A stretch of 60,078 nucleotides of DNA from IMG/VR virus record IMGVR_UViG_3300044475_000064, positions 1-60,078 of that record; one strand, 5' to 3'. The notes beneath the pieces are model-generated. The model was not told the origin of the DNA. It ran no database searches and saw nothing but the letters and a program-made list of their open reading frames with translations. This stretch comes from a virus. This document shows positions 1-60,078 of the stretch, one piece after another. Numbering within the stretch: position 1 is the first letter of the stretch; every line of letters begins with the position of its first letter. The translations under genes and the position numbers were made by a program.

Positions 1-127
1 CCTGTTGTTCTTCGGGTGTCAGTTCTTCGGCATCAGGATCTCGCATACCAGTTACCTGACGGATACGCTTAACAAGCTCATCACGTCCTGCAAGATCCAT
101 TTCCTCAACGATCAGATCGAGCATGAC
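1..127. repeat. Terminal overlap: nt 1-127 are identical to nt 59952-60078 (circular or permuted genome, unit length 59,951 bp)
   Basis: First and last 127 nt compared base by base with no mismatch seen. An exact short end overlap is the usual signature of a circular contig from an assembler. Confidence 0.95.
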
Positions 128-1855: not shown

Positions 1856-1877
1856 TCCACTGTCTTTGTTGTCTGCA

Positions 1878-2300
1878 TCAAACACGTTCGATCACCTCTT
1901 TGTGCGTGACCTTTCCTGTGTCGTGGTCAGTTTGGAATGCATCGGCTACAACAACATCCTCAGTCTGCTTAGGAGGGATGCGAAGTAAGTCACCTAGATG
2001 ATCGTGAATGAGTGAAGCTACCTTCATTGAAGTGAATGCATTGCTCGCATCCATTCCGTTTTGAAGTAGGAATAATCCGATCAACTGGGCGCTACGGCGT
2101 GGATCTGCATCAATGTCGTCAGGTTGCCATTGCCAGGCATCATCGACCTCGACAACTAGTGGAACTGTTTTACCCATGCGATAAGCAGGGAGAACAACGA
2201 GACACGGACGCAAACGCTGCCCGTGCCATGCGCCGTAAAGCATTAGATCGCCTCGCTTTTTCTCGAAGTGAGGCTTTGTGAGATCGAGATCGTACCGCAT
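1878..2300 (-). CDS. Hypothetical protein (140 aa)
   Basis: Long ORF tightly packed upstream of the portal. Its stop is 23 nt from the portal start. No motif recognised. Confidence 0.65.
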   Translation of the reverse strand: MRYDLDLTKPHFEKKRGDLMLYGAWHGQRLRPCLVVLPAYRMGKTVPLVVEVDDAWQWQPDDIDADPRRSAQLIGLFLLQNGMDASNAFTSMKVASLIHDHLGDLLRIPPKQTEDVVVADAFQTDHDTGKVTHKEVIERV

Positions 2301-5400: not shown

Positions 5401-5521
5401 TGTAAATATTATTCAGCGAATCAATGCACTTAATTATGGGGTAATAGCGTGAATAGCACAATTGCGCCGTGAGATACATGGTTTATGTTACACATCGTTA
5501 CAATTGCATAATGGCGTTTAA

Positions 5522-26155: not shown

Positions 26156-26232
26156 TGGTTGCGAGAGTTGGATTTGAACCAACGACCTTCGGGTTATGAG
26201 CCCGATGAGCTACCAAGCTGCTCTATCACGCA
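26156..26232 (-). tRNA. tRNA-Met (anticodon CAT), initiator-like, CCA encoded
   Basis: Cloverleaf folded by hand, 77 nt: TGCGTGA TA GAGC AGCTTGGTA GCTC A TCGGG CTCATAA CCCGA AGGTC GTTGG TTCAAAT CCAAC TCTCGCA A CCA. It has a GGG/CCC anticodon stem and A11:T24 like bacterial tRNA-fMet. There is one T:T mismatch in the acceptor stem. Confidence 0.8.
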
Positions 26233-26236
26233 ATAT

Positions 26237-26312
26237 TGGTGCAAAGAAATGGGATCGAACCATTGACCTGCGGATCTTCAATCCACCACTCTACCGACTG
26301 AGTTATCTTTGC
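26237..26312 (-). tRNA. tRNA-Phe (anticodon GAA), CCA encoded
   Basis: 76 nt: GCAAAGA TA ACTC AGTCGGTA GAGT G GTGGA TTGAAGA TCCGC AGGTC AATGG TTCGATC CCATT TCTTTGC A CCA. All stems pair. Confidence 0.85.
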
Positions 26313-26318
26313 ATTTTG

Positions 26319-26396
26319 CTCGATGGGCCGGACTTGAACCAGCGACCTCCAAAGGGCTTTATACCTTTGCTACTCTACCGACTGAGCTACCAACGA
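26319..26396 (-). tRNA. tRNA-like gene with a non-canonical anticodon arm (possible pseudo-tRNA or unusual decoder). No CCA encoded.
   Basis: The acceptor stem (one T:T mismatch), D-arm (GCTC AGTCGGTA GAGT) and T-arm (GCTGG TTCAAGT CCGGC) are canonical. The anticodon arm is GCAAAGG-TATAAAGC-CCTTTGG, a 6-7 bp stem with an 8-nt loop. Confidence 0.55.
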
Positions 26397-27001: not shown

Positions 27002-27280
27002 TTAACCTCCCCACTTATCAACATTCTTCTTGAGGTATTCCTCAATAAATGTACTACCCAATATACCCAATCCACTTGCGATACCAACTAAAGCCAGTGG
27101 AGGAATATTGGGCATTTGTAATAAAACGACACCAGCAATCAACGAAGTTGCTGCTCCTAGAATTGTCCGACCGATAATCAGACGAGCCGACAAAGGCTCT
27201 TTGGTGACGAGAAGTTTACTCATACCGATCAACCCACCGATGACGATAATCATTAAAATACTTTTCTCATGCTCTTGCAT
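27002..27280 (-). CDS. Putative holin (92 aa, three hydrophobic segments)
   Basis: Segments ILMIIVIGGLIGM, ILGAATSLIAGVVLL and LALVGIASGLGILG with a charged C-terminus. RBS AGGAG. It is immediately upstream of the endolysin. Confidence 0.65.
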   Translation of the reverse strand: MQEHEKSILMIIVIGGLIGMSKLLVTKEPLSARLIIGRTILGAATSLIAGVVLLQMPNIPPLALVGIASGLGILGSTFIEEYLKKNVDKWGG

Positions 27281-27336
27281 GTGTGCTTACTCCTATTGTT
27301 AGCACATCATGCGCTAGGTATGTCATGTTTGTTACC

Positions 27337-27366
27337 ATTATAGACAAGCCATTTTCAGTTCAACAA
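27337..27366 (-). promoter_or_regulatory. Sigma70-like promoter of the lysis cassette (perfect TATAAT -10)
   Basis: Minus strand: TATAAT at 27342-27337. Candidate -35 is TTGAAC (15-nt spacer) or TTGTTG (18-nt spacer). Confidence 0.4.
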
Positions 27367-27379
27367 CACGAAAATATAT

Positions 27380-27406
27380 AAAAACCCCACCGAAGTGAGG
27401 TTTTTT
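27380..27406. terminator. Rho-independent terminator directly after the giant gene
   Basis: On the minus strand the stem is CCTCAC/GTGGGG (one G:U pair) with loop TTCG, followed by T5. T6 lies on the plus side. Confidence 0.65.
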
Positions 27407-27408
27407 GC

Positions 27409-30400
27409 TTAATTGTAGATAGATGGTGACTGATCCTCAACCAAACGATCACGCAGCTTGTTGTTATAGCGCATACCACCTACGGCGTTGTCAGCACCTT
27501 TATCACGGTTTTTACGTGATTGAGAAATACTGCGAGGTGTGATCTTCTGCTCAGGATTCTTCTCATTGAACTTGTCAATTTTCTCAGCAAGTTTATCGAG
27601 CTTCTTCTCATCACCCTCTTGGTTGGCCTTATAGTAATCATCCATGATGCTCTTGCGCTCTTTGATGATCGTTTGTTGCATGTTGAAGCTGGCGTTATTG
27701 GTCTGATACTGTTCCGCAATACCTGCAGGTGTAAAACCAAGTGCCTGTTTGATCACATCAGAAGTGGTCACATCCGTAACAGTATCACCACGCATATTTT
27801 TCGCGCCTTCCGTTTCATAGCGATAGGCTTTCATCGGATCTTTAAGCATCTTCGGCATCATGGTCTCAATACCACGATAAACCTCACCCTTGCCGATATA
27901 ACTCAAACCACGGGCAAATTGAGCACCAATTGCAGGTACAGCACCAAGCAACTGGCTTTGCCAAAATTGTAAAGCTTCCTCACCTTCTTTCTCGCTGTCA
28001 GGTGATCTAAACCAAAGGTCAGCCATACCAACCGAAGCGGACAATGATGTGCCTGTTACATAACCAGGTACGCCGTGCAGTGCCAATCCTGCCAATTTTG
28101 GACCAATTGATTTTATCATTGCTTTTTTAAGTTCTTCTTTTGGATCTTCACCGTCATCCATGAACATCCCTGCCATCACCATCGCAATACCAAACAACCA
28201 TGTACCTGTGATACCTGCGTTCAACATCATCATGCCTGTAATACCAGCAAGCTGAGAGAATGCCTCCTTACGGACTTCCTTAGTCTCACCATTCAATGCT
28301 TGGTGAGTATCACGGAATAGGCGATAGAGCATGTTGATTTGGAAATTACGGAATACGAGTAAGATCTTCATCGTGTCATTGTGCATCAGTCGAGGGCGCG
28401 ATGTATTTGAATAATCAAAATGCGTTTTCCAAGTCAGATCGCCTGCTTTTGTCACTGCAGCATCATGGCTAAGACCTTTTTTGCGAGCAAGACGGTATGC
28501 AGCAAGGAATGTGACCTCACGGTTTAGACGTTCAGCATGATGGAAGCCCCAAGAAATGATTTTCATTGCACGCTCACGGGCAGCACTGTACTCAACACCA
28601 GTCTCACCAACACCTGCAAGGTCATGCCCTTGTGTACGCTCGATCACGCCTGCCTCATAACCGTCAGCCATTGCCTTGCGTTCTTCTGCAGTCAAACCAC
28701 TTGAACGCTCTGCAAAACCCTTACCTTTGGTGAAGTCAACGAGCGCATTGGTCAGCTCCTTACCTGCACGAGCAATACCATTCAGACCGCCTGCATATGC
28801 GCCAAGGATCGGCACACCCATGATCGGTGTCTGAAATAAGTTCATGATCGCAGCTTTTGGACTACCTGCGAGATACCATACGAATGCGAAACTTGATGCC
28901 CATTGAGCCAATGCGCCACCAGTCGGTGACATCACAAACTTATGGCGCTTCTCCATTTCATTAACGATCAAGCTGCTACGCTTAGGATTCTTGGTTTCAC
29001 GAGCATCATCCCGTGCTTGATCAAGTGCATCCTCTAGATCCATGCTGTGCGCCATACGTGCCAACTGGTGAGATCCGTGGAACATATGACTACCGAAAGC
29101 ACGGACGGCATCGGCGTTATAGCCTTCACGCCCTTTACGATGGATACGAGCCTTACGCACTGACATATCAGGCAATGACTCAAGATAACGTTGCCATACT
29201 TCATCCTTGACCTGCTCAGCGTTCGGCAGATCAGCAAGAATATCTTCAACATCGGCAACAAAATTTGGATCTACTGCTTTTCGCTCAGCTGCCCCATCAA
29301 TCAAAGCACCTTCTTCAACTTTATAATTTGCATCCTTTCTCATTTCCTCAGCAAAACGGCGCTGTTCGGTCGGATCTTCAAAGCGAGAGAACGATACTAC
29401 TTCCCCAGTCTTGGCATCGCGTACGGTGACAAATAGCGATCCAAACCGTGCTAATGGGAAATATGGTCCTTGGAGACGCTGCGTTTCAAACTGCTTGCGT
29501 AGGCGCGTCATACGAGCCTTACGATTCCATGCAATTTTAGTCTTAGCATTATTAAGAGCACGGTCAGCTGCAGCAATTGCATCATCACGCTCCTGTCCTT
29601 GCAATCCCTCATCAGTGATGCGCTCCATTTCACGGCCATGCTCACGCTCAGCTTTTTTGATACGGACATTGATTGCCTTTTCCATATTAGCAAGCAGTAT
29701 CTCATCAAAGGCATCAGCGAGATCCGTGTACGTGTCACGCACCTTTTTATAGATCTCTTTTGCTTCTGCAGACAATGGATCAAAACGTTCTTTCAGTACG
29801 TCATAGGCTTCTTCACGCTTGTCATCAAGTTCCTGTTTCAAGGTCAGTTCAGCTCTGAGATTTGCATTCAGATTAGGATTGGCCAAAGATCTTTTTTCTT
29901 GTGGAGTCATCAAGCTTTGGAACGGCATGGACGGATCAACCTGGTTTAAGGTCGATTCATGCATAATATCCATCAGCTCACGGTTTTCGTCCTTGTTCTT
30001 GATGCGATATTTCAACCACTCTTGAGCAACGGCATCGGTCTTAGCGTGCCATTTATTGCGCATGGTATCCATTTTGTCCTTGACGCGCAGATAAACCTTG
30101 GCAGACGGTAGATCACTCGCCATTTCATTGAGCATCTGGCGTAATGGAATCAAACCTAGCGCACCGTTTGTCATCAACTTGGTTAGTTTGTCAGATGGTA
30201 ATTTTTTGGCTTCATCCCACCACTGTTTAAGCTTCATTGCATACTCATCTTCTGAAACAGGGCCGAGATCATCATCAGCACGGCTGAAACGGATGTCAGG
30301 ATTGGTCGGATCGAATGCTCCAGTGTTATCAGTGGCAGATTTAATTTGCTCAGAATCAAAAACAGATAACGTTTGATGACCATCATCGGAAAAAATAATA

Positions 30401-33400
30401 GCGTCATATCCAAGTTCTTTAAGCTTAGGTACTAAATCGTTTGCCCAATGCTTATTTTTAAACTCATGTTTTGTTGAGTTCCAATCGAAATACCCATCCT
30501 TAGCCTGGTTCACAACACTCTGACCAAAGCGGCTGCTTGCTTGGATACCTGCCAAAACTTTCAAACCATGATCAGTATTTAGATCAAGTGGATTTTCAGA
30601 ACGCACATAGATCGGCTTAATACGAGCATCAGGATAAATTGGATTGATGTCTCCATAATCCATCATGTCCTGAATATCACGAGCGCTTAGGCGAGATCCA
30701 TCCTGACGGTTCACGTACTCATTACCATCAATTTCATAGATATTACCGTCATTGTCTTGATACACTGGATCGCTACGCTTACGCCCACCACCAGCACCTT
30801 GCGCATAACGATCAGCAATATCCATATCGTCAGTGGTATGAATCAGACCACCTGCCTTATCCTTATCCCATTGTGACCAGTTATCTCGTGTGCCGTGATA
30901 GCGAATTTGTGGTTTCCCATCCTCATCCACCACCTTACTGTCACCAAACCACTTTTTAAATTCAGGTGTGTTTGTCTGATCTTCACGGCTAAAACGAGAG
31001 CCTGATCCATGACTCGCATTGAAAGCAATCAGATAATTTTCATAGACTGTTTTCTCCTGATCCACGATCTTGAATCCTGCATCCGCATCAGGAATATAAC
31101 CCTCTTTGGTCTTGTCACCATTGCCACCAATAACAACGCCATCCTTACCAAGCAGCCAAACATAGCTATCAGTTTTCGGCGCAAAGCGCTTATCAAAACC
31201 AGTTCTTCGGCTATATGGCTGATCAGAATATTCGCTTATTGATAAAGCATTGACGCTTACACCCTCTCTAAAGCCATCTGTCAAAATTGGTTCACGGTTA
31301 GATTCACCACCTCTGAAATCAACATGGATGCTCTTATATTTTTTAAAGAACTGTTTTTTAGTGAGTGGCTTATTTGATGTGTCAGCCTTGCTGAAACGGC
31401 GCATACCATTTGCATCGCGATTGCCAAGCGTATTGACCATACGCTCAGCCAAGGCGAGTACATCATTCGCATTCAGATTGAGATTTAAGCCAAGCTTATC
31501 CACTGCCCATGCTTTGACGGCGGCAACGATGCGATTGACAAGAGTTTGCACACCTGGTCGCTTGTTCTGCGCACGAGCTGCAACGGTGATCAGATACGGA
31601 AGATACTCATCCTGACGAGCAGCTGCATCTGTCTCACGCTCAGCAAGGCGTTTTGCCTCAAGTGCGATAGGATCTTTAGCAGCCACCAAGCGATCAAACT
31701 GATCCATCAGGTTCTTGTAGGCAGTCGGCTTCATCACGCCCTGCATACCAGCGTGACCACCGAGCTCATGCAGAAACACTGGAACAATGGTGTCAGGTGT
31801 TAGAGCGTTTGCAACGAGCGTTACGTTCCCATCCTGCGCATAACCCTCGACACCTGCAATACGGAAACTGTCATCAATGCTCAGAATGCCTTGATCCTCA
31901 AGACGAGTGATCACGTCCTTGCCGAAACGCTCAATCAGACGATTGCGGACATCGGCAACAGTTATGCCAGTACCCTTCCGATCACCTTGGCTGAATAGTA
32001 GTTTTTCCTGCTGTGCGATGATGCGAGCACGATCACCTTCTGATTTAGGATCATAGGTTTTGATCTTTAATCCTGCATCACGTAGTACCTGCAGCGCATC
32101 TTTATCCATACCCTTTGGCACAACAGCGGTATTGAACTCGCTGAATTGAACGGCACGCTGAGCCTTCGCCTCAAAGTACGCCGTTGGTAGGTTTGCAAGG
32201 TAACTGGTCAGGTCGGCAATGATCTTGCGTGACTCAGGTGTGACCTTAAATGCCTCACGAATGCCTTTCTGCCCCTCCGCGATTGCAGATCCAGCATCAT
32301 TGAGATAGCCCCAACCGTTCGTGTCGTATTTGTAGAATGGTTTGAGACGTTCAAGCGCATCCTCAAATACCTTGGACGATTCCTCTTTTAGCTTCTCCAT
32401 TTCAGCCTCAGTGACGATCTGATCACGGCGAGATTGGATGTCTTTGAGCGTTTTCATTTCATTGGCGTAAGCAGAGCGTGCGCTACCTGCACCATAGAAT
32501 GTGCCCTCACCTGCCTGTAGCTGCTGAGTCATTTCAGACACGACGTTCTCAAGCGTGTAAGGCAGATATTTTTTGTTTCCTGCATTGGTAAAGCCTTTAA
32601 ATAAGGTCTTACCAGTCACCATCGAATTGAATTTATCGGTTGCCCATTTCTCGAAAGCTGCGCGTGTTTTTTCATTACGCATCTTTTCCGAAAGATCGCT
32701 TCTCAATTGAGCATAATCGTAACCACCACTTTTGCGGTAGTTGTCTGCTTTCATAGCTAAGTCATCAAGTGCATACGGCTTGAGCGTACCATCCTCGTTG
32801 TAATAACGTGCCTTTGCACGAGCCACGCCTTTTTGATTGATCTCACGCATAACCTCCTTTGCATCATCAGGCAAAGCAGGATCAATTGGCTTCTCGTACT
32901 CAGCGATGCGAGACTCAAAATACTTTTTAGCAATGGCAGCAAATTTTGGATCTTGTGGCCATGAGAAGCGAGATCCTTCCAGTTTTGCAGCGTTCTTGAT
33001 GTATGGATTGACCTTAGCCTGTTTCAATTTTGGTGCTTTGCCGATCTCATTGAGATATGCAAGCTGCATTGCATCTGATCGAACAAAGTTTTCAGCTCCG
33101 TCTGTACCACTCGCCTCATCGAGACTCGGCAAGCGAAGTCCGTTTGCATTCTGTTCAAGCTCGCTGAGCAGCGCATTAAATTTCTTCTTGTCTAGCTCAT
33201 AGCTTGCCCGTGGCTGACGTGGAGAATAAATATCTGCATCGAACGTGCGGATCTTTGAATCCTCAAGAAGCTTCGGATCTGCCAATAGGGTGACTTCACC
33301 AAAGCCTGAGAAGTCAGACACATCAGAACGAGCGACGGCGATAGATGGTGCAGCAAGCCCACCTAGATCGTTCGCAGCCAAAATGTTCGATGCGCTCAGG

Positions 33401-36400
33401 TTGTGAGCGACAAATAGATTTTTAGGTTGTTCATCAGTCTTTGAAAACTGAGCTTTCTCACCGTTCAGATTAACAATTTCTGAATATCCGTACTTATCCT
33501 TGGTCACAACCGCATCGTAACCAGCCCTTTTGATCGCTGCAGACAGCGCCTTACCTGTCTTGCCGTCAAACATTTCCGACAAGTCTTTTTTCCACCCACT
33601 GCTGTCAGTGGATTTATGCTCAAGCACAAGCGGATTTTTGAACGAGATCACACCGTACTGCCAACCAGGACTGTTCATGGCTGACATATCATCAGTCGCA
33701 ATGTTCATGTACTCGCCTGCAGGTTCTAAATCCTGCCCAAAGTCCATGCCTTGTGGATAGTTCTTGCTGCTGACTGTGTTGCGAGAGAAATACGCATTAA
33801 TTGGCTTACCAGTCTCAGCATCTTTCGGATCTGTGAGATCAGCGCGGCTGAAACGAATATCAGGATTGGTCGGATCGAATGCACCAGTGTTGTCAGTGGC
33901 GGATTTGATTTGCTCAGGACTGAATGTCACATAGATTGTTGAAGGTTTATAAATATCCTTGGCAACCTTTTCAGCTCGCTTTAGATCTGCAGCATCTAAT
34001 GAGTCAACCTCGACATATTCACCATCAAGCTTAATATAACTTCCATAATCAATAACATTAGAAAGAATAGCACCATCTTTTCCATCGTTTTTTGCACGAT
34101 GAGCCATAAGGTTCGTATCACTTACACCAAACAAGGCCTCGTCAATTTCAAAATCTTGAAGGTTATGATGTTCCGCAAATGACTTTGCGTCTTTCTCAGA
34201 ATCGAAAATAAATTGGCCATTATCACCAATAAATGTATCAAAACCATCTACAGTGATTTGATAAGCTTTTTTTTCTCCTTGGATTGTTCCATTCCACATA
34301 TTTCCACGGTAGTTGGCAAGTTGTGGATCTCTAATATTTAGGAATACTGGATAAATTCCAGGTGATGCCTCATCGCTATCATACTCATCACTTGCTTTTG
34401 CTTCGTCAATAGATCCTGCATAACTAACTGCGACATCACGATTTGCCGCAAAAAATGAAGATCCAGGCGGTGTCTCAGAGAAGCGAGGCTCAGCGTCGTT
34501 ATCAAATTCAGAAAAACCAGCCTGTTTCGCTCCATGATAAACCACCAACGGCTCACCATTCTCATCAACCACCTGTGATGCGTTGGAAGCATCGTTTTCC
34601 CAATCACCAAACCAGTTTTTAAATGACGGCGTGCGTACCTGCAACCATTGCTGCTCATTCAAATTGGTTAGTTTTCCGTTAGGCGCTTTCATCCATTGGT
34701 CAGTGCCTTCGTACTGTTTGCGCACATCATTTATCTCAGAATTTTGATTGTCCGCACGGCTGAAACGTAACTTCTTGTCAAACCAATAATCCTCTAGGAA
34801 CTTGCCAAGGCTTTCAGGATTCGTACCTGAGAATAGTAGCTGCCCGTCTTGGCGCTCGATGCGAATGCGACCTTTCTTCTCAACGATACGAACGCCTGTG
34901 TCCTTGCCCTTATTGGATAGTATCGCGCCGTCAGAATTGACTGAGCGACCATATTGCTGTGCTACATCATCGTACTTCTGAAATTTGTTTTCAGTATTGG
35001 ATTCTTCGGCTGGTTTCGCCTTAGTAGTATGCTTCGCTTTCGGCGTAGGTGTATCTATAAGTCGCATTTCACTTAACGGCGTACCAACATCCACACCCTT
35101 ACGAGTGAACAAAATAGAGCCATCATCCAAAATTTTACGATCAAAACGTGGCTGAATTAACTGACGTGTAAGTGGGCGTAATTTTATGCCTTTTTGGATA
35201 AGGATTTGATCAATCGCATCCATACCAATAAAGTCAGTCACATATTCACGACCTGTAATGTCGCCAGTACCAGGCTTATAGTTTTCCTTGCCTGATACTG
35301 CATCGCCACGCATCTGAACTAAGATGCCTTTGTTAGCACCCTGACCCATTGCGAGATCAATATTATCGGCAACATACAATTGGGATGTGTTGCCGCCGCC
35401 ATTAGTCAATGTATTGCGTGTTAGATCATATAAGCCTTCCGCATCCATTTCACGGTAAACAGTTTTGCCAATAGGTGTTGTTTTTCCTGTGAATGGTCCA
35501 ACATTATAATTTTTTGGCATGGATGGACGTTCGGTCTTAGCCGCTTCCTTTTTAGCCATAGTGTCTTTAACAACTAGTGTTTTTACGGCTTCCTGTGCCT
35601 CAGCTAGAGTGTCGTAGTATCCATATTCATTACCATTATTCTCATCACGATACAGTGTAAAAATAGGATACGGCTTATCATTACGCATACGAGACTCATC
35701 AACAATGATCATACCGTTTGATGCAATCCACGTTTTATCACGAGTATCATGTGTCGACCATGTGATTTTTGTCTCATCACTGATCTTCTTCTCGATTTCC
35801 TTGTTTTTACGATACTCAATGTAACGTTTGAGGTCAGCTTTCTCATTGAGCAGGCTTTCTTTCATGCGCTCAGCTTTATTTACAGCACGTTTCTCATGAG
35901 CTTTAGGATCATTAATAATTGCATCCTGCTCAGCAATGTTCTGATCAATTCTAGGAAAATCTGCTTGTAGCTTCTCAATAGATATATGACCTTTGCTTTG
36001 GTCATAGTCTTTGATATTTCTTTCAAAAGAAATCTGATCCTTAGATTTTTTAGCAACAGGCGTAGTCTTAGGCTGACTGGTATCTACAGTCGAACTAGGG
36101 AACTCATGAGCAGTCACAACTAGGTCACGAATAGGCGCATTCAGGCGAATGACTTTCACATCCTCACCAGTTTCACGCGCAGCCATCCATTGATGATGAC
36201 CATCAAGAACATGGTTATCACTTGAGATCAGGATTGATCGGTTGCCACCTTCATAATTTTTAGCCTTATCAACCTTCTCCTGCGAGAACTCGGCTTGTGT
36301 CGGTTTTAGGCTGTCAGCGGTAACTGTTTCCTCCTGGTGTGAGATACCGCGTGCATTCATAAAGTTGACCATTGCGCCACGGTGTTCGGCTTTGATCTGT

Positions 36401-39400
36401 GGCATTTCTGCACGAGGAATACCGATAGTGCCTGACTGGTCAGAAAATTCAGACCAACCGTCACCAATATCCTTGCCTTTGATGTCCTGTATGGTATCAG
36501 GTGTTTTTGTTTCAGCAGCATTTGATTTTATTTCAATCATGCCGCTTGATTTTGCCATATCAATGTTAGTGTGAGTCTTTCCTTTCTGAAACCAATCACC
36601 ACGCCCAGTCCATTCATTTGATGCTGTTTTTTCCCAAAATAAGCCACGTTCTTCCGAGAACTCACTTGGGCGGAAGCGAGTTCCAATTGGTTTGTTGAGG
36701 TAGCTCTCCGCTTGATTTTCAAGTGCTTTCTGCTGCACTTCAAGTTGCAATTTTTTAATATCACCAAGGTATTCTCGCGTGATCGCTTTTACTTCTTCAT
36801 CCGTACTTAGAATAATTTGTTTCTGACGTTTTTCTTCTTCAAGGAGACCTTGCTCTTTCGCTTTTTTGTGCGCATCTACTGCGTCGTTATAGCGCTTAAT
36901 TGCATTATCTCTTTTTTCCTGTAGCGAATGTGTCTTAGGCTTGCCATACTTACTTAAATATCTCTCGTAGGCACTTTCAAGTGTCTTGCCGCGAGCATAC
37001 TCATCGGGAGAATGCCCGATTGACCAGGTGTTAGATTCTTTAGAGATATTCCACTTATCTTTTCCAGTATACAACTTGCTATCAGGATAGCCGCTAGGAA
37101 CATATCCATTGTAACCATCCTTGTCCTTACCAAATGCATCAGCTTCTTTTTGCATTTCAGCTTGTTCAGTAAAGTATTTATTTAGTTGTTTTTGTGTTGT
37201 ACTAGGTAACTCATTAAATGACTTTGTGCCCATGTCTTTTGCAGAAGCCTGAGCCTTACCTTGTGCAGTAGAATAGCCAATAGTTTGAAGGATTCTAATG
37301 CGGTAAATAGGGTCTAAACCATCCCAAGCAACATCACTATTCGTCACCTCTGTTGTGACAGATACAGTATTTGACGGCGTAGGTTCAGGCGATTTCAGAT
37401 TCACATACTGAGATCCATCCCATTCCTGCAGATTGCTCATTTCAATTTGATCGTTGGTGCTTCTTGACGCTTCATTCAATGCATCTTGAACATCCTTCGC
37501 GCCGATCATAATCCAGCCGTACTGACCTTTGTATCGGTAGCTCTTTAGACCATCTGCAGCCAATGGCTTATCTGTGGTTTTCTGCTCAACCTTTTGCTCT
37601 ACAGGCTTAGCCTTCCCAGTCTCATATGCATCAACAATACGTTTTACATCAGCAAATACCTGTGACCGTGTACGACCTGACTTTTTGATCTCAGCCTGAA
37701 TCAATCGCGTTTTCTGTGATGGATTATTGATATGAGCATCAAGGAAAAGCTCATCAAATGACGGCGTTTTCGATGCTTCTTTTTTTGTTTCTGCATCGTT
37801 ACGTGCTACGCCGTGCCAAACATCATCGGCTGTTTTCACACCAATAACAGTGACACTTCCATCATCATTTTTTTGAACGTTATAGTTTGGATTGCTCAGT
37901 GCAGCCTGAATTGAATCCTCCTTACGGTAAGTCAGTCGATCTGTCTTATTATCACGGACGTACTCAGCTACTTGATCACGCGCACCCTCATCCATACTAC
38001 GGCTGATCTCTGACATACCTTGCTTGATCTGCTCAGCGGTGCTTGATAACTCCGTTGTTTTTTCAGCTGCAGCTTGCTTTTTAGCAAGCTTATTGATTGC
38101 TGCTTCAACCTTACGGCGTTCGGCTGTAAGGATCTTATCCCAACCGCCATTAGTTTTTGCCAAAGTTGCAAGGTACTTCATGCGAGCACGAAGTTCAGCA
38201 TCAGTCATACGACCGAGTGTTTTCTCGGCTGGCTCTATCTCAACGGACGTAATAGGTGGCGTATCGACTGATTGCCCCTCAGTGGTATCAAAGGTCGATA
38301 GGTTCGGATCTTCTGCAGCCTTTGCAGGTTGTGTCGGCTGATAACCAAAATCAGTTAAATCAGGTACGTTCGATGCTGCTTCTGCATTTCCTGACGGAAC
38401 ATCCGTTCCGCTATCTCCTTGTACTGCTGCAATTCGCGGATCTTCTTGGATTGCTCGATTTGAGATAGTCTGATCATCCGTTGAAATTCCATCGGTGGTC
38501 TGTACATCATTTACTTGCTCCACTGTAGTCGTATCAGTAACAGGCTGTGCAAAATTCACATCACCCTGACCAAATTGCATCGGCGTACCATCTTGATCAC
38601 GCGCAAAAACATCGCCGTTCTCATATCCATCTACTGTAACCGTATAGACGGCATTAGGATCTGCTTTAGGCGAGATCTGTGTAACTGTACCAGGTTCACC
38701 GAGCCATTGATCTTGAGAAGCTTGCACGGCGTTACGCTCAGCTTCGATCTGAGCATCAAGGTTATCACCACCGATTGCTCGCTCAATTGGACCAGTTCTG
38801 CGAGCAGGTTGCTGCTCAGGCTGAATTGGCTGTTCAGGTGCAATGTCCTGCGTTGGTGTGTCTGTTCCTGCCTGTGGATCATCCTGTATAGACTCGTCGA
38901 TCTGTGGCGGAATGTTTGTACGATGTCCAGCTGCACCGAGACCGCCGCCCATAATACTACCAAGCACCGCACCACCTGCAGCTTGGTTTGCAACACCCTT
39001 TGTCAATGAACGGTTAGGATCTGCCTCTTGAACAGCATAGTTTTGAGCGACCTGTTGCAATGCGCTCTGTGGCATTTCCTCAAGTAAACCCTCAGCCACG
39101 GCAGCGCTTGCCGCGCTCTTGAATCGGCTTTTCGTACCCTCTGTAATAACCTTGGCAATAGCACGGTCTCCCATACCACCAAAGATACCAGTTCCAATAC
39201 CTGCCAATACAAATGCTTTAGTCGCTGCGTCCTCAGCAATTAGGTTACGTGCCTGCTCAAAGCTCTTACCATCTGCTATGAGTGCTTTCATCGCATCCGA
39301 GTTTTTAAGCATATCCTCAGACATGCTATTGATCTCTTTGCGGACATCAATTGCAGCATGAGCACCACCAAAACCACCCTCAATCAAGCCACCTGCAATC

Positions 39401-40746
39401 GTCGCCGTCGCCGCAGCTTTCTTTGCAGCGACTTCACGAGTTGCCCCAGTTGTGATTGCTTTTTTAAATGCACCTTTGGCCAACGCTAAAGATCCACCCA
39501 TAGACATCGCCATTTCAGGCGTGCTCTCTACGATACCAGCGTAGTAAGCTCGTGGATCTTTCCATGCTTCACCAAGACCCCAACTTGTTGCAGTTGTGCC
39601 ATCATCAAGCTTATCACCTGGTTCAACAACCCAAAGTTTTTTACGTGCTTCTGTAGTCTTAGTAGATAGATTCCCTTCATATTTTTTCTTAGCTTCGTCA
39701 ATAATCTGCTGAGACGTTTTGCCAGTAAAATACTGATCAATTTTATCCATAGCACCAACAAGATGCTTTACACCAGGAATGCGATTGGTGATCTCGTATG
39801 CGGCTTCCGCACTACTGCTCAAGCCTGTAAGTAGCAAATTACCAGTATCAGACAAAAAGCTAGGTTCTTCTTTATTTTTTGGATTTTTCTGAGTTGGTTG
39901 CTGTGCAATTTTGATCGGTTTAGCACCTGTAAATGGAATGAACTCATCCAATCCCTGCTCTTGAGCAGCTTGCATACGCGCCATTTCAGTTGCAGACAAT
40001 GGGCGATAACGGCCACCATCGGTATTTTCCTGTTTTGATTGTGTCGCTTGTGGCTGCGCATTAGATGCAAGGCTCTGACCTGATCCAATCGAACTATAAT
40101 AGCCCTTTACATTATTAATATATGGGATTGTCTCTTGTGGACGTGGTAGATAGGCTTTCCAGTCACCACCCTGCTCACGAGAACGGCGAACGGCTTTATC
40201 GACATTACCCTCACCTGCATTGTACGCAGCAAGCGCCTTATCGACATCGCCGTTATAGCGAGACATCATTGCCTCAAATTTACCGAGACCAAGACGTACA
40301 TTCTCACGCACCGAGCCATCACGAAGCGGCTTAATACCATAACCAGGTTTAGCACCTGTATCGGGCATGACCTGCATAAATCCGAATGCGCCCACTGGCG
40401 ATCTAGCGTTTGGATTCCCTGCACTTTCCTGAGCACCAATCGCAGCAATCCAGTGCATTTGTTCAGGTGAGTACCCTGCAAATTCATTAGGATTATTTTG
40501 GATAAATCCCATTGACCCCTGTAGTTTTTTATCAAAACCTACACCGCCGCTTGCAGCCTCGCGTTGGCTGTTGAGATCAAGAACACGCGCATCAAACTGC
40601 TGATTGACGTTCTTGCGGCGTGATTCAGCATTAATGCGATCTTGCTCAAACTGCTTTTTGAGATCGTCAGGCAATCCATAGGATGCAGAATCAGCTTCCT
40701 GTAGTGCGGCTTCAAGTGGAGACTGTTGCAGTCCTTTACGATCCAT
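27409..40746 (-). CDS. Giant polyvalent virion/ejection protein (4,445 aa): SLT lytic transglycosylase, Gly-zipper hydrophobic region, ParB-like domain, two ART-like modules, PLxRFG domain, C-terminal TM cluster
   Basis: Uninterrupted ORF with RBS GAGGA. Motifs:
- AIGAQESAGNPNARSPVGAFGFMQVMP (SLT)
- LKPTQAEF..VLDGHHQWMAARETG (ParB-like)
- two copies of RFSR.D..FK.WFGD..VVDE.G.P..YHG .. EQIKSATDNTGAFDPTNPDIRFSRAD
- GPYFPLARFG (PLxRFG)
- hydrophobic AGITGMMMLNAGITGTWLFGIAMVMAGMF. Confidence 0.85.
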   Translation of the reverse strand: MDRKGLQQSPLEAALQEADSASYGLPDDLKKQFEQDRINAESRRKNVNQQFDARVLDLNSQREAASGGVGFDKKLQGSMGFIQNNPNEFAGYSPEQMHWIAAIGAQESAGNPNARSPVGAFGFMQVMPDTGAKPGYGIKPLRDGSVRENVRLGLGKFEAMMSRYNGDVDKALAAYNAGEGNVDKAVRRSREQGGDWKAYLPRPQETIPYINNVKGYYSSIGSGQSLASNAQPQATQSKQENTDGGRYRPLSATEMARMQAAQEQGLDEFIPFTGAKPIKIAQQPTQKNPKNKEEPSFLSDTGNLLLTGLSSSAEAAYEITNRIPGVKHLVGAMDKIDQYFTGKTSQQIIDEAKKKYEGNLSTKTTEARKKLWVVEPGDKLDDGTTATSWGLGEAWKDPRAYYAGIVESTPEMAMSMGGSLALAKGAFKKAITTGATREVAAKKAAATATIAGGLIEGGFGGAHAAIDVRKEINSMSEDMLKNSDAMKALIADGKSFEQARNLIAEDAATKAFVLAGIGTGIFGGMGDRAIAKVITEGTKSRFKSAASAAVAEGLLEEMPQSALQQVAQNYAVQEADPNRSLTKGVANQAAGGAVLGSIMGGGLGAAGHRTNIPPQIDESIQDDPQAGTDTPTQDIAPEQPIQPEQQPARRTGPIERAIGGDNLDAQIEAERNAVQASQDQWLGEPGTVTQISPKADPNAVYTVTVDGYENGDVFARDQDGTPMQFGQGDVNFAQPVTDTTTVEQVNDVQTTDGISTDDQTISNRAIQEDPRIAAVQGDSGTDVPSGNAEAASNVPDLTDFGYQPTQPAKAAEDPNLSTFDTTEGQSVDTPPITSVEIEPAEKTLGRMTDAELRARMKYLATLAKTNGGWDKILTAERRKVEAAINKLAKKQAAAEKTTELSSTAEQIKQGMSEISRSMDEGARDQVAEYVRDNKTDRLTYRKEDSIQAALSNPNYNVQKNDDGSVTVIGVKTADDVWHGVARNDAETKKEASKTPSFDELFLDAHINNPSQKTRLIQAEIKKSGRTRSQVFADVKRIVDAYETGKAKPVEQKVEQKTTDKPLAADGLKSYRYKGQYGWIMIGAKDVQDALNEASRSTNDQIEMSNLQEWDGSQYVNLKSPEPTPSNTVSVTTEVTNSDVAWDGLDPIYRIRILQTIGYSTAQGKAQASAKDMGTKSFNELPSTTQKQLNKYFTEQAEMQKEADAFGKDKDGYNGYVPSGYPDSKLYTGKDKWNISKESNTWSIGHSPDEYARGKTLESAYERYLSKYGKPKTHSLQEKRDNAIKRYNDAVDAHKKAKEQGLLEEEKRQKQIILSTDEEVKAITREYLGDIKKLQLEVQQKALENQAESYLNKPIGTRFRPSEFSEERGLFWEKTASNEWTGRGDWFQKGKTHTNIDMAKSSGMIEIKSNAAETKTPDTIQDIKGKDIGDGWSEFSDQSGTIGIPRAEMPQIKAEHRGAMVNFMNARGISHQEETVTADSLKPTQAEFSQEKVDKAKNYEGGNRSILISSDNHVLDGHHQWMAARETGEDVKVIRLNAPIRDLVVTAHEFPSSTVDTSQPKTTPVAKKSKDQISFERNIKDYDQSKGHISIEKLQADFPRIDQNIAEQDAIINDPKAHEKRAVNKAERMKESLLNEKADLKRYIEYRKNKEIEKKISDETKITWSTHDTRDKTWIASNGMIIVDESRMRNDKPYPIFTLYRDENNGNEYGYYDTLAEAQEAVKTLVVKDTMAKKEAAKTERPSMPKNYNVGPFTGKTTPIGKTVYREMDAEGLYDLTRNTLTNGGGNTSQLYVADNIDLAMGQGANKGILVQMRGDAVSGKENYKPGTGDITGREYVTDFIGMDAIDQILIQKGIKLRPLTRQLIQPRFDRKILDDGSILFTRKGVDVGTPLSEMRLIDTPTPKAKHTTKAKPAEESNTENKFQKYDDVAQQYGRSVNSDGAILSNKGKDTGVRIVEKKGRIRIERQDGQLLFSGTNPESLGKFLEDYWFDKKLRFSRADNQNSEINDVRKQYEGTDQWMKAPNGKLTNLNEQQWLQVRTPSFKNWFGDWENDASNASQVVDENGEPLVVYHGAKQAGFSEFDNDAEPRFSETPPGSSFFAANRDVAVSYAGSIDEAKASDEYDSDEASPGIYPVFLNIRDPQLANYRGNMWNGTIQGEKKAYQITVDGFDTFIGDNGQFIFDSEKDAKSFAEHHNLQDFEIDEALFGVSDTNLMAHRAKNDGKDGAILSNVIDYGSYIKLDGEYVEVDSLDAADLKRAEKVAKDIYKPSTIYVTFSPEQIKSATDNTGAFDPTNPDIRFSRADLTDPKDAETGKPINAYFSRNTVSSKNYPQGMDFGQDLEPAGEYMNIATDDMSAMNSPGWQYGVISFKNPLVLEHKSTDSSGWKKDLSEMFDGKTGKALSAAIKRAGYDAVVTKDKYGYSEIVNLNGEKAQFSKTDEQPKNLFVAHNLSASNILAANDLGGLAAPSIAVARSDVSDFSGFGEVTLLADPKLLEDSKIRTFDADIYSPRQPRASYELDKKKFNALLSELEQNANGLRLPSLDEASGTDGAENFVRSDAMQLAYLNEIGKAPKLKQAKVNPYIKNAAKLEGSRFSWPQDPKFAAIAKKYFESRIAEYEKPIDPALPDDAKEVMREINQKGVARAKARYYNEDGTLKPYALDDLAMKADNYRKSGGYDYAQLRSDLSEKMRNEKTRAAFEKWATDKFNSMVTGKTLFKGFTNAGNKKYLPYTLENVVSEMTQQLQAGEGTFYGAGSARSAYANEMKTLKDIQSRRDQIVTEAEMEKLKEESSKVFEDALERLKPFYKYDTNGWGYLNDAGSAIAEGQKGIREAFKVTPESRKIIADLTSYLANLPTAYFEAKAQRAVQFSEFNTAVVPKGMDKDALQVLRDAGLKIKTYDPKSEGDRARIIAQQEKLLFSQGDRKGTGITVADVRNRLIERFGKDVITRLEDQGILSIDDSFRIAGVEGYAQDGNVTLVANALTPDTIVPVFLHELGGHAGMQGVMKPTAYKNLMDQFDRLVAAKDPIALEAKRLAERETDAAARQDEYLPYLITVAARAQNKRPGVQTLVNRIVAAVKAWAVDKLGLNLNLNANDVLALAERMVNTLGNRDANGMRRFSKADTSNKPLTKKQFFKKYKSIHVDFRGGESNREPILTDGFREGVSVNALSISEYSDQPYSRRTGFDKRFAPKTDSYVWLLGKDGVVIGGNGDKTKEGYIPDADAGFKIVDQEKTVYENYLIAFNASHGSGSRFSREDQTNTPEFKKWFGDSKVVDEDGKPQIRYHGTRDNWSQWDKDKAGGLIHTTDDMDIADRYAQGAGGGRKRSDPVYQDNDGNIYEIDGNEYVNRQDGSRLSARDIQDMMDYGDINPIYPDARIKPIYVRSENPLDLNTDHGLKVLAGIQASSRFGQSVVNQAKDGYFDWNSTKHEFKNKHWANDLVPKLKELGYDAIIFSDDGHQTLSVFDSEQIKSATDNTGAFDPTNPDIRFSRADDDLGPVSEDEYAMKLKQWWDEAKKLPSDKLTKLMTNGALGLIPLRQMLNEMASDLPSAKVYLRVKDKMDTMRNKWHAKTDAVAQEWLKYRIKNKDENRELMDIMHESTLNQVDPSMPFQSLMTPQEKRSLANPNLNANLRAELTLKQELDDKREEAYDVLKERFDPLSAEAKEIYKKVRDTYTDLADAFDEILLANMEKAINVRIKKAEREHGREMERITDEGLQGQERDDAIAAADRALNNAKTKIAWNRKARMTRLRKQFETQRLQGPYFPLARFGSLFVTVRDAKTGEVVSFSRFEDPTEQRRFAEEMRKDANYKVEEGALIDGAAERKAVDPNFVADVEDILADLPNAEQVKDEVWQRYLESLPDMSVRKARIHRKGREGYNADAVRAFGSHMFHGSHQLARMAHSMDLEDALDQARDDARETKNPKRSSLIVNEMEKRHKFVMSPTGGALAQWASSFAFVWYLAGSPKAAIMNLFQTPIMGVPILGAYAGGLNGIARAGKELTNALVDFTKGKGFAERSSGLTAEERKAMADGYEAGVIERTQGHDLAGVGETGVEYSAARERAMKIISWGFHHAERLNREVTFLAAYRLARKKGLSHDAAVTKAGDLTWKTHFDYSNTSRPRLMHNDTMKILLVFRNFQINMLYRLFRDTHQALNGETKEVRKEAFSQLAGITGMMMLNAGITGTWLFGIAMVMAGMFMDDGEDPKEELKKAMIKSIGPKLAGLALHGVPGYVTGTSLSASVGMADLWFRSPDSEKEGEEALQFWQSQLLGAVPAIGAQFARGLSYIGKGEVYRGIETMMPKMLKDPMKAYRYETEGAKNMRGDTVTDVTTSDVIKQALGFTPAGIAEQYQTNNASFNMQQTIIKERKSIMDDYYKANQEGDEKKLDKLAEKIDKFNEKNPEQKITPRSISQSRKNRDKGADNAVGGMRYNNKLRDRLVEDQSPSIYN
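30277..30353. repeat. Intragenic 77-nt repeat, copy 1 (about 91 percent identical to 33841..33917)
   Basis: Aligned by eye with 7 mismatches in 77 nt. It encodes EQIKSATDNTGAFDPTNPDIRFSRAD at the end of ART-like module 2. Confidence 0.85.
33841..33917. repeat. Intragenic 77-nt repeat, copy 2
   Basis: Encodes the same 26-aa peptide at the end of ART-like module 1. Confidence 0.85.
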
Positions 40747-58271: not shown

Positions 58272-58337
58272 AGTATGTCCTCACAACATGCGGTTCTTTG
58301 GTTTACCGCACGTCATGCGCAGCCCTTTACTGTTACG

Positions 58338-58366
58338 ATTATCGCCATAGTGTTGTCAAAATGCAA
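58338..58366 (-). promoter_or_regulatory. Sigma70-like promoter upstream of the major capsid gene (TTGCAT-17 nt-GATAAT)
   Basis: Minus strand: -35 at 58366-58361 and -10 at 58343-58338. It has the same -35 hexamer as the terS promoter. Confidence 0.5.
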
Positions 58367-58386
58367 ACACTCATGACAAGTTAATT

Positions 58387-58557
58387 TTAATTTTGCTTGC
58401 AATCCTTTAAATCTTTTGATTTTGGAGGGAGTTTAATCTTTATGTCAGACGGCGCATCAATAACAAGAGAGACTTGCTGCCCTGCTTTGTGATCAAGTCG
58501 GATCTTTACATCACCGATCTCAATCGTTGTACCAATACGAAGCGAATGCTTTACCAT
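58387..58557 (-). CDS. csrA: CsrA/RsmA-like small protein (56 aa)
   Basis: Manual translation gives MVKHSLRIGTTIEIGDVKIRLDHKAGQQVSLVIDAPSDIKIKLPPKSKDLKDCKQN. It aligns to E. coli CsrA ([41 protein letters not shown]) through RxG.T..IGD and G.QV....(N/D)AP. Strong RBS AAGGAG. It is below the track size cut-off. Confidence 0.55.
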   Translation of the reverse strand: MVKHSLRIGTTIEIGDVKIRLDHKAGQQVSLVIDAPSDIKIKLPPKSKDLKDCKQN

Positions 58558-58568
58558 CTAGCTACTCC

Positions 58569-59486
58569 TTAGCCCATCCGTAGGTATTCATCGCGTTCTG
58601 AGTCAGACATTTTTTTAAGTGCAGCTTCAAATGCAATCGAATCCGAATCTGCCAAGCGATCAAGGTGAGCATATTTACCGTCATCAGTATCGTTCTGAGT
58701 GGCTGCAGGTACTTTACCGAGTGTCGGTGGAACTTCGATCTGCTTCTTGGTTTTTGGTTGCTGCTTGGTTTCTTTTGCATCAGTGTTAGTGATACCTAGA
58801 TCCTCAGACCATTGCTTATAAGCTTTTTCAAGCTCACGGCGACCAGGTTGGCCACCTTTAGCAATGATTTCCGCCGTAATGCCACGCAGTACGCTATCAA
58901 ACGAGTTCCACATGGTCGCGTTCTTTGAGATAGCAGGATGGTCAGCAACGAAAGACTGAGCTACAACTTCCCACGTTTGTTGTGACTGGCTTTGTGCTGC
59001 CTCTGCAGCAAGCTCAGCTTTCAGCTCGGCACGATCAAGACTACGCAACTCTGAATCAATTGCACGTTGCTGTTTTTGATATTCAGCGAATGTAATTTCA
59101 CCTTCATCAAATTTATCAGCGAGTGATGCAGCATCAGTATCGAGCTGTGTGCGTTTAGCTGCGATGTCTGCAGGTAGTTCAGCTTTGAATAATGGTGCAG
59201 GTGGTGCAGTTAGTGTCTCATCTTCACCATTGCCGTCATTACTCTTATCAGCACCGTCATTACCTTCGCCAGTACCAGTTGCATCGTCAGGCTTTTTGTT
59301 TGCGCCGTCACCTTGCCATTTGTCATCGTTAGATCCAGCACCATCGTTGCTAGAAGCGCCGTCACCCTGATCATTGTTGTCAGAGCCGTTGTCCTCACCG
59401 CCGTTCTCATCATCTTCCTCGTAGCCCTTACGTTCTTCGGGTGTGAGCATCGCCAAATCTTCTGCGCTTAAACCATCAATACTCAT
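58569..59486 (-). CDS. Scaffolding protein (305 aa)
   Basis: Located between portal and capsid. Acidic Asp/Gly/Asn-rich N-terminus followed by long helical segments (AELKAELAAEAAQSQSQQ). Confidence 0.6.
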   Translation of the reverse strand: MSIDGLSAEDLAMLTPEERKGYEEDDENGGEDNGSDNNDQGDGASSNDGAGSNDDKWQGDGANKKPDDATGTGEGNDGADKSNDGNGEDETLTAPPAPLFKAELPADIAAKRTQLDTDAASLADKFDEGEITFAEYQKQQRAIDSELRSLDRAELKAELAAEAAQSQSQQTWEVVAQSFVADHPAISKNATMWNSFDSVLRGITAEIIAKGGQPGRRELEKAYKQWSEDLGITNTDAKETKQQPKTKKQIEVPPTLGKVPAATQNDTDDGKYAHLDRLADSDSIAFEAALKKMSDSERDEYLRMG

Positions 59487-59499
59487 AGTGTCCTACCTT

Positions 59500-60078
59500 T
59501 CATTGTTGATACTGTTGAAGTCCTGCCGACTGATCGGATTGACCTTGTTGTTGCTGTGCAGCCATTTGTTGCTGCTGAGCTTGTTCTTGTTCTGCCTGAG
59601 CCTGTTGCTCCTGCATCATTGCTTGTTGCTGTTGGGCTTGAGCTACCGCTTGCGCAGTTTCCTCATCTTCCTCAGTACGCGATTTAAAATTTGCTTCATG
59701 AAGCATTACATCTGCTACACGTACCGCACCAGGCACGCTAATCGCAGCAAGTGCAGCTTCAAGCGCCGTTTTCTGCGTCTGAATGTTTTGACCAGCCAAT
59801 GCGCCAAGTATTTGCTTAACGTTTGCCTGATCTTTCTGAGCTGCCACCATATCACGCTGAGCTTTGGCTTCTTTGCCTGCAATAGTCGCCTCTGCATCAC
59901 GGCGTTGTAATTCAGCCTGTTGCTGAGCTGCTTGCTGTTTCTGCATTTCAGCCTGTTGTTCTTCGGGTGTCAGTTCTTCGGCATCAGGATCTCGCATACC
60001 AGTTACCTGACGGATACGCTTAACAAGCTCATCACGTCCTGCAAGATCCATTTCCTCAACGATCAGATCGAGCATGAC
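59500..60078 (-). CDS. Portal protein, C-terminal part with a Gln/Ala-rich tail
   Basis: Same frame as 1..1855 through the 127-nt overlap. The track ORF ..LDLIVEEMDLAGRDELVKRIRQVTGMRDPDAEELTPEEQQAEMQKQQAAQQQAELQ.. ends QQQQGQSDQSAGLQQYQQ. Confidence 0.8.
   Translation of the reverse strand, partial: VMLDLIVEEMDLAGRDELVKRIRQVTGMRDPDAEELTPEEQQAEMQKQQAAQQQAELQRRDAEATIAGKEAKAQRDMVAAQKDQANVKQILGALAGQNIQTQKTALEAALAAISVPGAVRVADVMLHEANFKSRTEEDEETAQAVAQAQQQQAMMQEQQAQAEQEQAQQQQMAAQQQQGQSDQSAGLQQYQQ
59952..60078. repeat. Second copy of the 127-nt terminal overlap
   Basis: Identical to nt 1-127. Confidence 0.95.

Follow-up and report, generated by a model that had tools for sequence, protein, structure and literature searches.

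A CsrA-like gene beside the major capsid gene of a Bcep22/PEp14-like podophage, and a conserved hairpin motif in the capsid leader

We analysed the IMG/VR virus record IMGVR_UViG_3300044475_000064 over its full 60,078 nucleotides (nt; hereafter the window), with attention to a short open reading frame (ORF) whose product resembles the bacterial regulator CsrA, and to the leader of the capsid operon that follows it (Table 1). Gene order and the identity of the capsid protein (86% to that of Erwinia phage PEp14, 64% to that of Burkholderia phage Bcep22) indicate that this is a Bcep22/PEp14-like podophage of roughly 60 kb. As the first-pass annotation of this sequence had reported, the ORF lies between the scaffold-like and major capsid genes and has a strong ribosome-binding site; it is the sole ORF of its kind within the window. 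The TAA stop codon of the scaffold-like gene (58571..58569) shares bases with the ORF's Shine-Dalgarno sequence, which makes translational coupling between the two genes likely. Only 11 nt separate that stop from the ATG, and in relatives the TAAGGAG arrangement recurs with a stop-to-ATG spacing of likewise 11-12 nt. In all relatives the scaffold-like gene has the portal gene on one side and the csrA-like gene on the other, the latter forming the end of the portal and scaffold transcription unit, and a gap of 115 nt then leads to the major capsid gene. A hairpin at the ORF's own Shine-Dalgarno sequence, GCUA-AGGAG-UAGC, was considered as a CsrA autoregulatory site and dropped, as it is not conserved in relatives.

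Table 1. Features of the window discussed in the text
Feature	Coordinates	Strand	Details
CsrA-like ORF, 56 aa + stop	58387..58557	minus	product MVKHSLRIGTTIEIGDVKIRLDHKAGQQVSLVIDAPSDIKIKLPPKSKDLKDCKQN
Shine-Dalgarno sequence AAGGAG	58570..58565	minus	followed by 7 nt, then ATG at 58557
Scaffold-like gene, 305 aa	58569..59486	minus	acidic, coiled; PHROG 8246 match
Major capsid protein gene, 365 aa	57174..58271	minus	PHROG 334 match
Promoter-like element, capsid operon	58338..58367	minus	TTTGCA, 18 nt, GATAAT (equally TTGCAT, 17 nt)
Leader motif	58308..58320	minus	GCGCATGACGTGC; 17 nt after the -10 element
Predicted 13-bp leader hairpin	58282..58317	minus	5' arm CAUGACGUGCGGU, 3' arm ACCGCAUGUUGUG
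Second exact motif copy	27302..27314	minus	GCGCATGATGTGC; TATAAT (27342..27337) before it, holin-like gene (27280..27002) after it
Degenerate third motif copy	5456..5467	minus	GCGCAATTGTGC; precedes the terminase gene
Giant DarB-like gene, single 4445-aa ORF	27409..40746	minus	hallmark of the group
Terminator-like hairpin after the giant gene	27400..27376	minus	

With 56 codons the ORF is short and falls below usual ORF cut-offs, so that a chance reading frame in an intergenic spacer has to be considered. The ratio of nonsynonymous to synonymous substitution rates (dN/dS) is 0.05-0.33 against five relatives, as measured over 45 alignable codons with synonymous sites near saturation. A single-sequence search returned 9 homologues and a family profile 188 at E <= 1e-3; the window ORF itself scores 90 bits against its own family hidden Markov model (HMM). 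With this HMM, 46 of 84 related loci and four further metagenomic contigs prove to have such an ORF immediately behind the scaffold-like gene, and in most loci that have it the distance to the capsid gene is 70-140 nt. Among the loci with no match, five have too short an upstream sequence to judge, and most of the remainder come from a rhizobial-type clade whose capsid operon has been relocated. Together with the fixed synteny, the strong Shine-Dalgarno sequence, a predicted CsrA fold (see below) and a peptide observed for the orthologue of phage JC1, these data effectively refute a chance ORF, and we regard it as close to certain that the ORF is a real gene under purifying selection, encoding a divergent CsrA-fold protein of a capsid-module family.

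The family itself has been described since the Bcep22 genome paper. The window protein matches PHROG 8397, "CsrA-like regulator", with E 1.6e-12 over its residues 1-48, which align with positions 2-49 of the 64 in the profile. By tblastn the gene is recovered from 19 records of Erwinia, Pseudomonas, Klebsiella and Burkholderia phages, most of which give it that name, in the order portal, scaffold, csrA-like gene, capsid seen in the window. Members include Bcep22 gp54 (NP_944283), Pavtok gp9, PEp14, Itty13 gp22, SopranoGao gp25 and JC1 gp47. The ORF had been presented as unannotated, but orthologues at the identical position already carry the "CsrA-like regulator" label in RefSeq phages, and the window ORF is best described, on sequence grounds, as an additional member of the annotated family. 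The label can be applied to it as well, provided it is noted that the protein lacks two hallmarks of CsrA. The gene call itself is routine; of more interest are the leader element beside it and a possible phage-internal Csr-like switch. A survey of 30 csrA-positive phages by Sobrero and Valverde (2020) includes Bcep22, BcepIL02, BcepMigl, DC1, GP4, PEp14, Parlo and SopranoGao, and reports that Burkholderia and Sinorhizobium hosts have no chromosomal csrA (PMC7366521).

The csrA-like gene directly follows the scaffold-like gene in phages of Erwinia, Pseudomonas, Klebsiella and Serratia, in Burkholderia and Ralstonia-type phages, and in many metagenomic relatives. Sinorhizobium phage PBC5 (NC_003324; loci L096/L097) has undergone a rearrangement that leaves its capsid operon elsewhere, divergent from the lysis genes, and its csrA-like gene (34158..34328, minus strand; gp26, annotated as hypothetical, a divergent family member with E 1e-4 against the family HMM) still adjoins the scaffold gene. 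From this strict synteny we conclude that the csrA-like gene appears to be a core gene of the capsid module and not a moron, contrary to the label given to it in the JC1 paper (PMC9144972). The capsid module of a large group of phages, whose hosts include Erwinia, Pseudomonas, Klebsiella, Serratia, Burkholderia, Ralstonia and rhizobia, has this family as a constant element, and the published view of a moron that might alter host biofilm or metabolism may be wrong.

That the gene stays beside the scaffold gene without exception, even in the rearranged PBC5, and is probably translationally coupled to it would also suit a structural role, in which a small beta-rich dimer aids the scaffold in procapsid assembly or is packaged and ejected together with the DarB-like giant protein, RNA binding being a relic or of use only once the next cell has been reached. 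The JC1 orthologue gp47, a 64-aa "CsrA", was detected by one unique peptide in mass spectrometry of CsCl-purified virions, alongside the scaffold-like gp46 (PMC9144972). However, this is a single peptide, and the JC1 authors themselves state that virion association is unconfirmed (PMC9144972); the Bcep22 and Pavtok records mark many of the neighbouring gene products as virion proteins and not the csrA-like one; and the conserved basic residues K3, R7 and K24, with a net charge of about +4, fit nucleic-acid binding. We therefore judge a virion or assembly protein to be decidedly unlikely.

The relationship to CsrA was assessed at the level of sequence profiles and of predicted structure. As a single sequence, the window protein matches Pfam PF02599 with E 1.7e-4 and 21.9 bits, below the gathering score of 27 bits (residues 5-41 on profile positions 5-42 of 53), and it falls far short of the NCBIfam CsrA equivalogs NF002469 and TIGR00202 (21.1 bits against a cut-off of 73, and 16.4 against 70.1). 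Across the family the signal is stronger: 75 of 110 members match PF02599 at E <= 1e-3 (best E 1.9e-10), and in a search of PDB sequences with a 13-sequence family profile the top nine matches are all CsrA or RsmE, among them RsmE 2jpp (E 1.6e-8) and E. coli CsrA (E 1.5e-6). An AlphaFold2 (AF2) model built on a 110-sequence alignment has a mean predicted local distance difference test score (pLDDT) of 79, and a Foldseek search of the PDB with it gives CsrA, RsmA or RsmE as all of the top 14 matches, at a template modelling (TM) score of 0.61-0.71 (0.67 or more for full-length chains) and a root-mean-square deviation (rmsd) of 0.6-1.5 A over 37-45 columns, the next match having E of about 1. 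The predicted beta-core comprises residues 1-44 and is followed by a disordered tail rich in lysine and proline. By this model, the protein retains the core of five beta-strands through which CsrA assembles into an interdigitated dimer.

The features that are missing are equally consistent. No C-terminal helix is predicted at residues 45-56 in the AF2 model (confidence declines beyond residue 40, with a pLDDT block mean of 66 over residues 41-50 and values under 50 over 49-56). The position of CsrA Arg44 is occupied by Leu43 in the window protein; over the 110 members it is R in 43, L in 32, G in 16, T in 7 and C in 3, and the residue after it is proline in 59 of 110. CsrA Arg6 is likewise replaced by leucine in the window protein, and Arg7 is kept in 101 of 110 family members. 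The near-invariant family residues K3, L6, R7, G9, G15, K24 and G26 and the conserved A35 are all present in the window protein, whose identity to CsrA is about 25-35%. Published RsmE complexes show that Arg44 contacts the RNA backbone or the adenine and not the guanines (PMC4005645). By sequence and predicted fold, then, the window protein is best regarded as a CsrA homologue, and an atypical one. The first-pass annotation had aligned its product with the CsrA beta-core and described the C-terminal helix and key arginine as not conserved, and both observations hold up: the alignment is borne out by PF02599 (the comparison it had proposed), PHROG 8397, the PDB profile search and Foldseek, and the losses by the helix-free model and Leu43. 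It had also tied its case to a CsrA-fold prediction and to conservation in related phages; AF2 and Foldseek return the CsrA/RsmA/RsmE fold, and the ORF is conserved, at a fixed position and with 188 homologues.

In the monomer model only strands 2-4 are paired, strands 1 and 5 being extended and unpaired, which is compatible with their pairing with a second subunit, as in the CsrA dimer. The same feature of a domain-swapped dimer, with the loss of the RNA-contacting arginine, could point to a poison subunit that forms inactive heterodimers with host CsrA. This is very improbable in our view, as the family occurs in phages of hosts reported to lack csrA, and the low identity to CsrA makes a mixed interface doubtful.

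A broader alternative, and the function proposed in the first-pass annotation, is that the protein acts on the host as a CsrA mimic or antagonist, binding host GGA-containing mRNAs or small RNAs (sRNAs) of the CsrB/RsmZ type and so retuning metabolism late in infection. Clear homology to CsrA and the predicted fold speak for it, as does the presence of canonical CsrA genes on other phages and plasmids, and knock-down of the CsrA homologue of phage PTXU04 gave small plaques (PMC11879866). We nevertheless consider it unlikely, primarily because the same gene occupies the same position in phages whose hosts are reported to lack csrA (PMC7366521). Moreover, the window protein and about 60% of the family have lost Arg44, the model shows no helix at the C-terminus, the score of 21 bits is well short of the 73 required of a CsrA equivalog, and the gene belongs to the core capsid module. 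PTXU04 gp28 was considered as an experimentally tested orthologue and rejected: it is a canonical F116-like CsrA encoded beside a holin in an unrelated podophage, and lies outside PHROG 8397.

We next consider the gap between the csrA-like and capsid genes, which is more conserved than the surrounding coding DNA. The first-pass annotation placed a capsid promoter at 58338-58366, and a conserved promoter-like element is indeed found there, although its score in a promoter scan is by itself no better than chance. A conserved -35-like block, GTGTTTGCA, is followed by a spacer and GATAAT; both hexamers are conserved in 16 or more relatives with saturated synonymous sites, and from the -35-like block to the capsid ATG the window is 68-97% identical to relatives in which the neighbouring ORF has a synonymous divergence (dS) of 0.9-2.9. 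The sequence TTGACA (58358..58353) was rejected as the -35 element, being not conserved and only about 10 nt from the -10 element.

Downstream of this promoter-like element lies a short motif (its loop and stem can also be written GCGCAUGACGUGC), most of which falls within a predicted hairpin. The 3' arm of the hairpin ends directly at the capsid Shine-Dalgarno sequence AGGA (58281..58278). For the window sequence its minimum free energy is -22.5 kcal/mol, with a z of -2.0. Of the cells compared across 16 relatives 90% are paired, two pairs show compensatory changes, and the covariation score was reached by 3 of 500 shuffles. Versions of the motif, GCGCA-NGA-(N)GUGC, are part of the capsid leader in practically every member of the group, covering alpha-, beta- and gamma-proteobacterial phages. 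In beta-type relatives the motif reads GCGC-AGGA(N)-GUGC, which places A(N)GGA in a hairpin loop and constitutes, as a candidate recognised from sequence, a textbook CsrA site. There, the pairing partner of the motif's 3' half is GCACUCC, directly ahead of the AUG; compensatory changes in this pairing are numerous, and cognate partners are more stable than non-cognate ones (-11.1 vs -8.4 kcal/mol; permutation p about 1e-4). Two IMG/VR contigs (L060 and L061) carry in their capsid leaders the hairpin GGUGC-AUGGAU-GCGCC, whose AUGGAU hexaloop matches the canonical CsrA/RsmE site (CANGGANG) perfectly. The csrA-like proteins of these contigs have arginine at the Arg44 position, and protein and leader may here be the best natural pair in which to look for binding.

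The motif is not confined to the capsid leader. The window has a second exact copy downstream of the terminator that ends the giant gene and ahead of the holin/endolysin cassette, and a degenerate third one (Table 1). The two exact copies share a late-leader layout, in which a GTGTT(T)G...[G/T]ATAAT promoter is followed by GTAACA and then by the hairpin motif (58282..58367 and 27302..27369, minus strand). Pavtok has the same two copies, in its capsid and lysis leaders, PBC5 has the motif in four late leaders including those of capsid and lysis genes, and Bcep22 has it only at the capsid gene; all copies are in sense orientation. An exact-motif scan of IMG/VR gave 31 matches, of which about 13 are capsid leaders of the Bcep22-like group, the remainder being, by rough estimate, about as many as chance gives. 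Neither the csrA-like gene nor the motif is present in 933W, Vibrio D80, KPP25 or Paracoccus KLEP18-1, four outgroup phages with the same capsid type and capsid proteins 28-36% identical. In Rfam the leader element has no match at E <= 10 beyond noise, and the whole window matches only tRNA families; because no Rfam family matched, we regard the element as not previously described.

An apparent covariation between protein and RNA, linking arginine at the Arg44 position with GGA in the motif, was followed on the capsid-protein tree, where it reduces to one large clade plus L060/L061 and is suggestive only. Pavtok/PEp14, L018 and L012/L013 are exceptions to the link, and the variable motif base covaries instead with its RNA partner.

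Taking these observations together, we tentatively favour a reading to which we give somewhat less than an even chance, namely that the CsrA-like protein is a phage-autonomous post-transcriptional regulator of late mRNAs and not a mimic of host CsrA. The persistence of the family in phages of csrA-less hosts argues for phage mRNAs as targets in preference to the host Csr network, and a phage-internal job is suggested by a gene welded to the scaffold gene in every lineage. The leader is a candidate target because gene and motif share the same phylogenetic range, and the best one because beta-type phages keep both the arginine and a textbook CsrA site. Under this reading the protein would be made together with the portal and scaffold proteins, and its dimer would bind the GCGCA-NGA-(N)GUGC element in the 5' leader of the capsid mRNA, which would start about 50 nt downstream of the csrA-like stop codon; the lysis-cassette mRNA, with the same element, would likewise be bound. 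The element would pair with sequence abutting the Shine-Dalgarno sequence or start codon, and because the motif thus competes for or abuts the ribosome-binding region, a bound protein would be expected to change translation, altering access to the ribosome-binding site or mRNA stability in the direction of either activation or repression. Output of capsid protein and of lysis proteins would in this way be tied to that of scaffold and portal.

Several observations weigh against such a regulator. The loop in the window's clade is AUGAC and not GGA, and the motif is predicted to be mostly paired within the 13-bp stem, to which a canonical CsrA would not bind. The Arg44 RNA contact is a leucine in the window protein, the Arg-to-GGA link collapses to a few lineages with the variable base covarying with RNA, and in RsmE that arginine touches backbone or adenine in any case (PMC4005645). 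The co-occurrence of gene and motif may represent a single ancestral event, the Bcep22 lysis leader has no motif, and a different factor, such as RNA polymerase, an antiterminator or an RNase, could equally recognise the invariant GCGC/GUGC stem, which might also function as DNA. A virion location, and with it a different role, is finally hinted at by the JC1 peptide (PMC9144972).

It is more doubtful whether the CsrA-like protein and the GCGC-A(N)GA(N)-GUGC hairpin together form a self-contained phage Csr system that times or balances late translation. Were this so, it would account for the presence of a CsrA homologue in phages whose hosts lack csrA, and it would imply that the window's clade has departed from the canonical code on the side of the protein (Arg44 to Leu) as well as on that of the site (GGA to UGA). 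If the protein controls capsid and lysis mRNAs through this leader element, it would be a clear example of a virus domesticating a global regulator of bacteria as a dedicated switch for its late genes, and would offer a tractable protein-RNA pair with natural specificity variants.

The wider genome context is that of a complete phage. The window is a circularly closed contig with an exact 127-bp terminal overlap (1..127 = 59952..60078), the signature of circular assembly at k=127, so that the true genome is about 59,951 bp; the portal gene spans the ends (about 1885..14 and 60078..59500, minus strand), and the G+C content is 44.6%. Counterparts of the giant ORF are annotated as "DarB-like antirestriction" proteins in Bcep22 (gp75), Pavtok (gp27) and PBC5. 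Just downstream of the lysis genes are three tandem tRNA genes (26156..26396, minus strand), Met-CAT, Phe-GAA and an odd third one called as Phe-AAA, which scores lower in Rfam, at 40 bits. No DNA-level relatives of the window were found in the phage collection by megablast, and representative bacterial genomes contained no close prophage relative, the best matches being capsid proteins of 60-77% identity, mostly in alpha-proteobacteria.

Among known systems, the window protein is closest to the Bcep22-type family, with which it shares a full-length HMM match, a length within 54-70 aa, a location that follows the scaffold-like gene and precedes the capsid gene by about 100 nt, and the conserved residues K3, L6, R7, G9, G15, K24, G26 and A35-P36. 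It differs from the named Bcep22-type phages in being only 35-59% identical at the protein level with no DNA-level match, its closest relatives being metagenomic contigs, and from Pavtok and Bcep22, which keep the arginine, in having leucine at the Arg44 position. With bacterial CsrA, RsmA and RsmE (PDB 1y00, 2jpp, 1vpz, 2bti) it shares the pattern R.G....IGD.....G.QV....(N/D)AP, a predicted fold within an rmsd of about 1 A over 43 residues, and a small, basic and presumably dimeric character. Unlike them, it has no C-terminal helix and carries leucine for both Arg44 and Arg6, while its family has its own invariant K3 and K24, is encoded in a capsid operon and has no known partner sRNA or FliW.

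Canonical CsrA proteins are likewise borne on mobile elements, as in RsmM of F116-like Pseudomonas phages, the CsrA of Vibrio phages and PTXU04 gp28; plasmid RsmQ and CsrT of a Legionella integrative conjugative element are further homologues of this type. These proteins share 55-90% identity with host CsrA, have retained both Arg44 and the helix, and are encoded in accessory or lysis regions, and they plausibly join the host Csr/Rsm network, whereas PHROG 8397 is far more diverged and bound to the capsid module. Closer in function, if the regulatory reading is right, would be the Com protein of phage Mu, a small protein that opens a leader hairpin and thereby allows translation of mom, the T4 translational repressor RegA, and the autoregulation of the P22 scaffold. 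The analogy involves no relationship of sequence or fold: as in those systems, the CsrA-like protein would, hypothetically, be a small phage protein that sets the translation of late or structural genes through their leader RNA.

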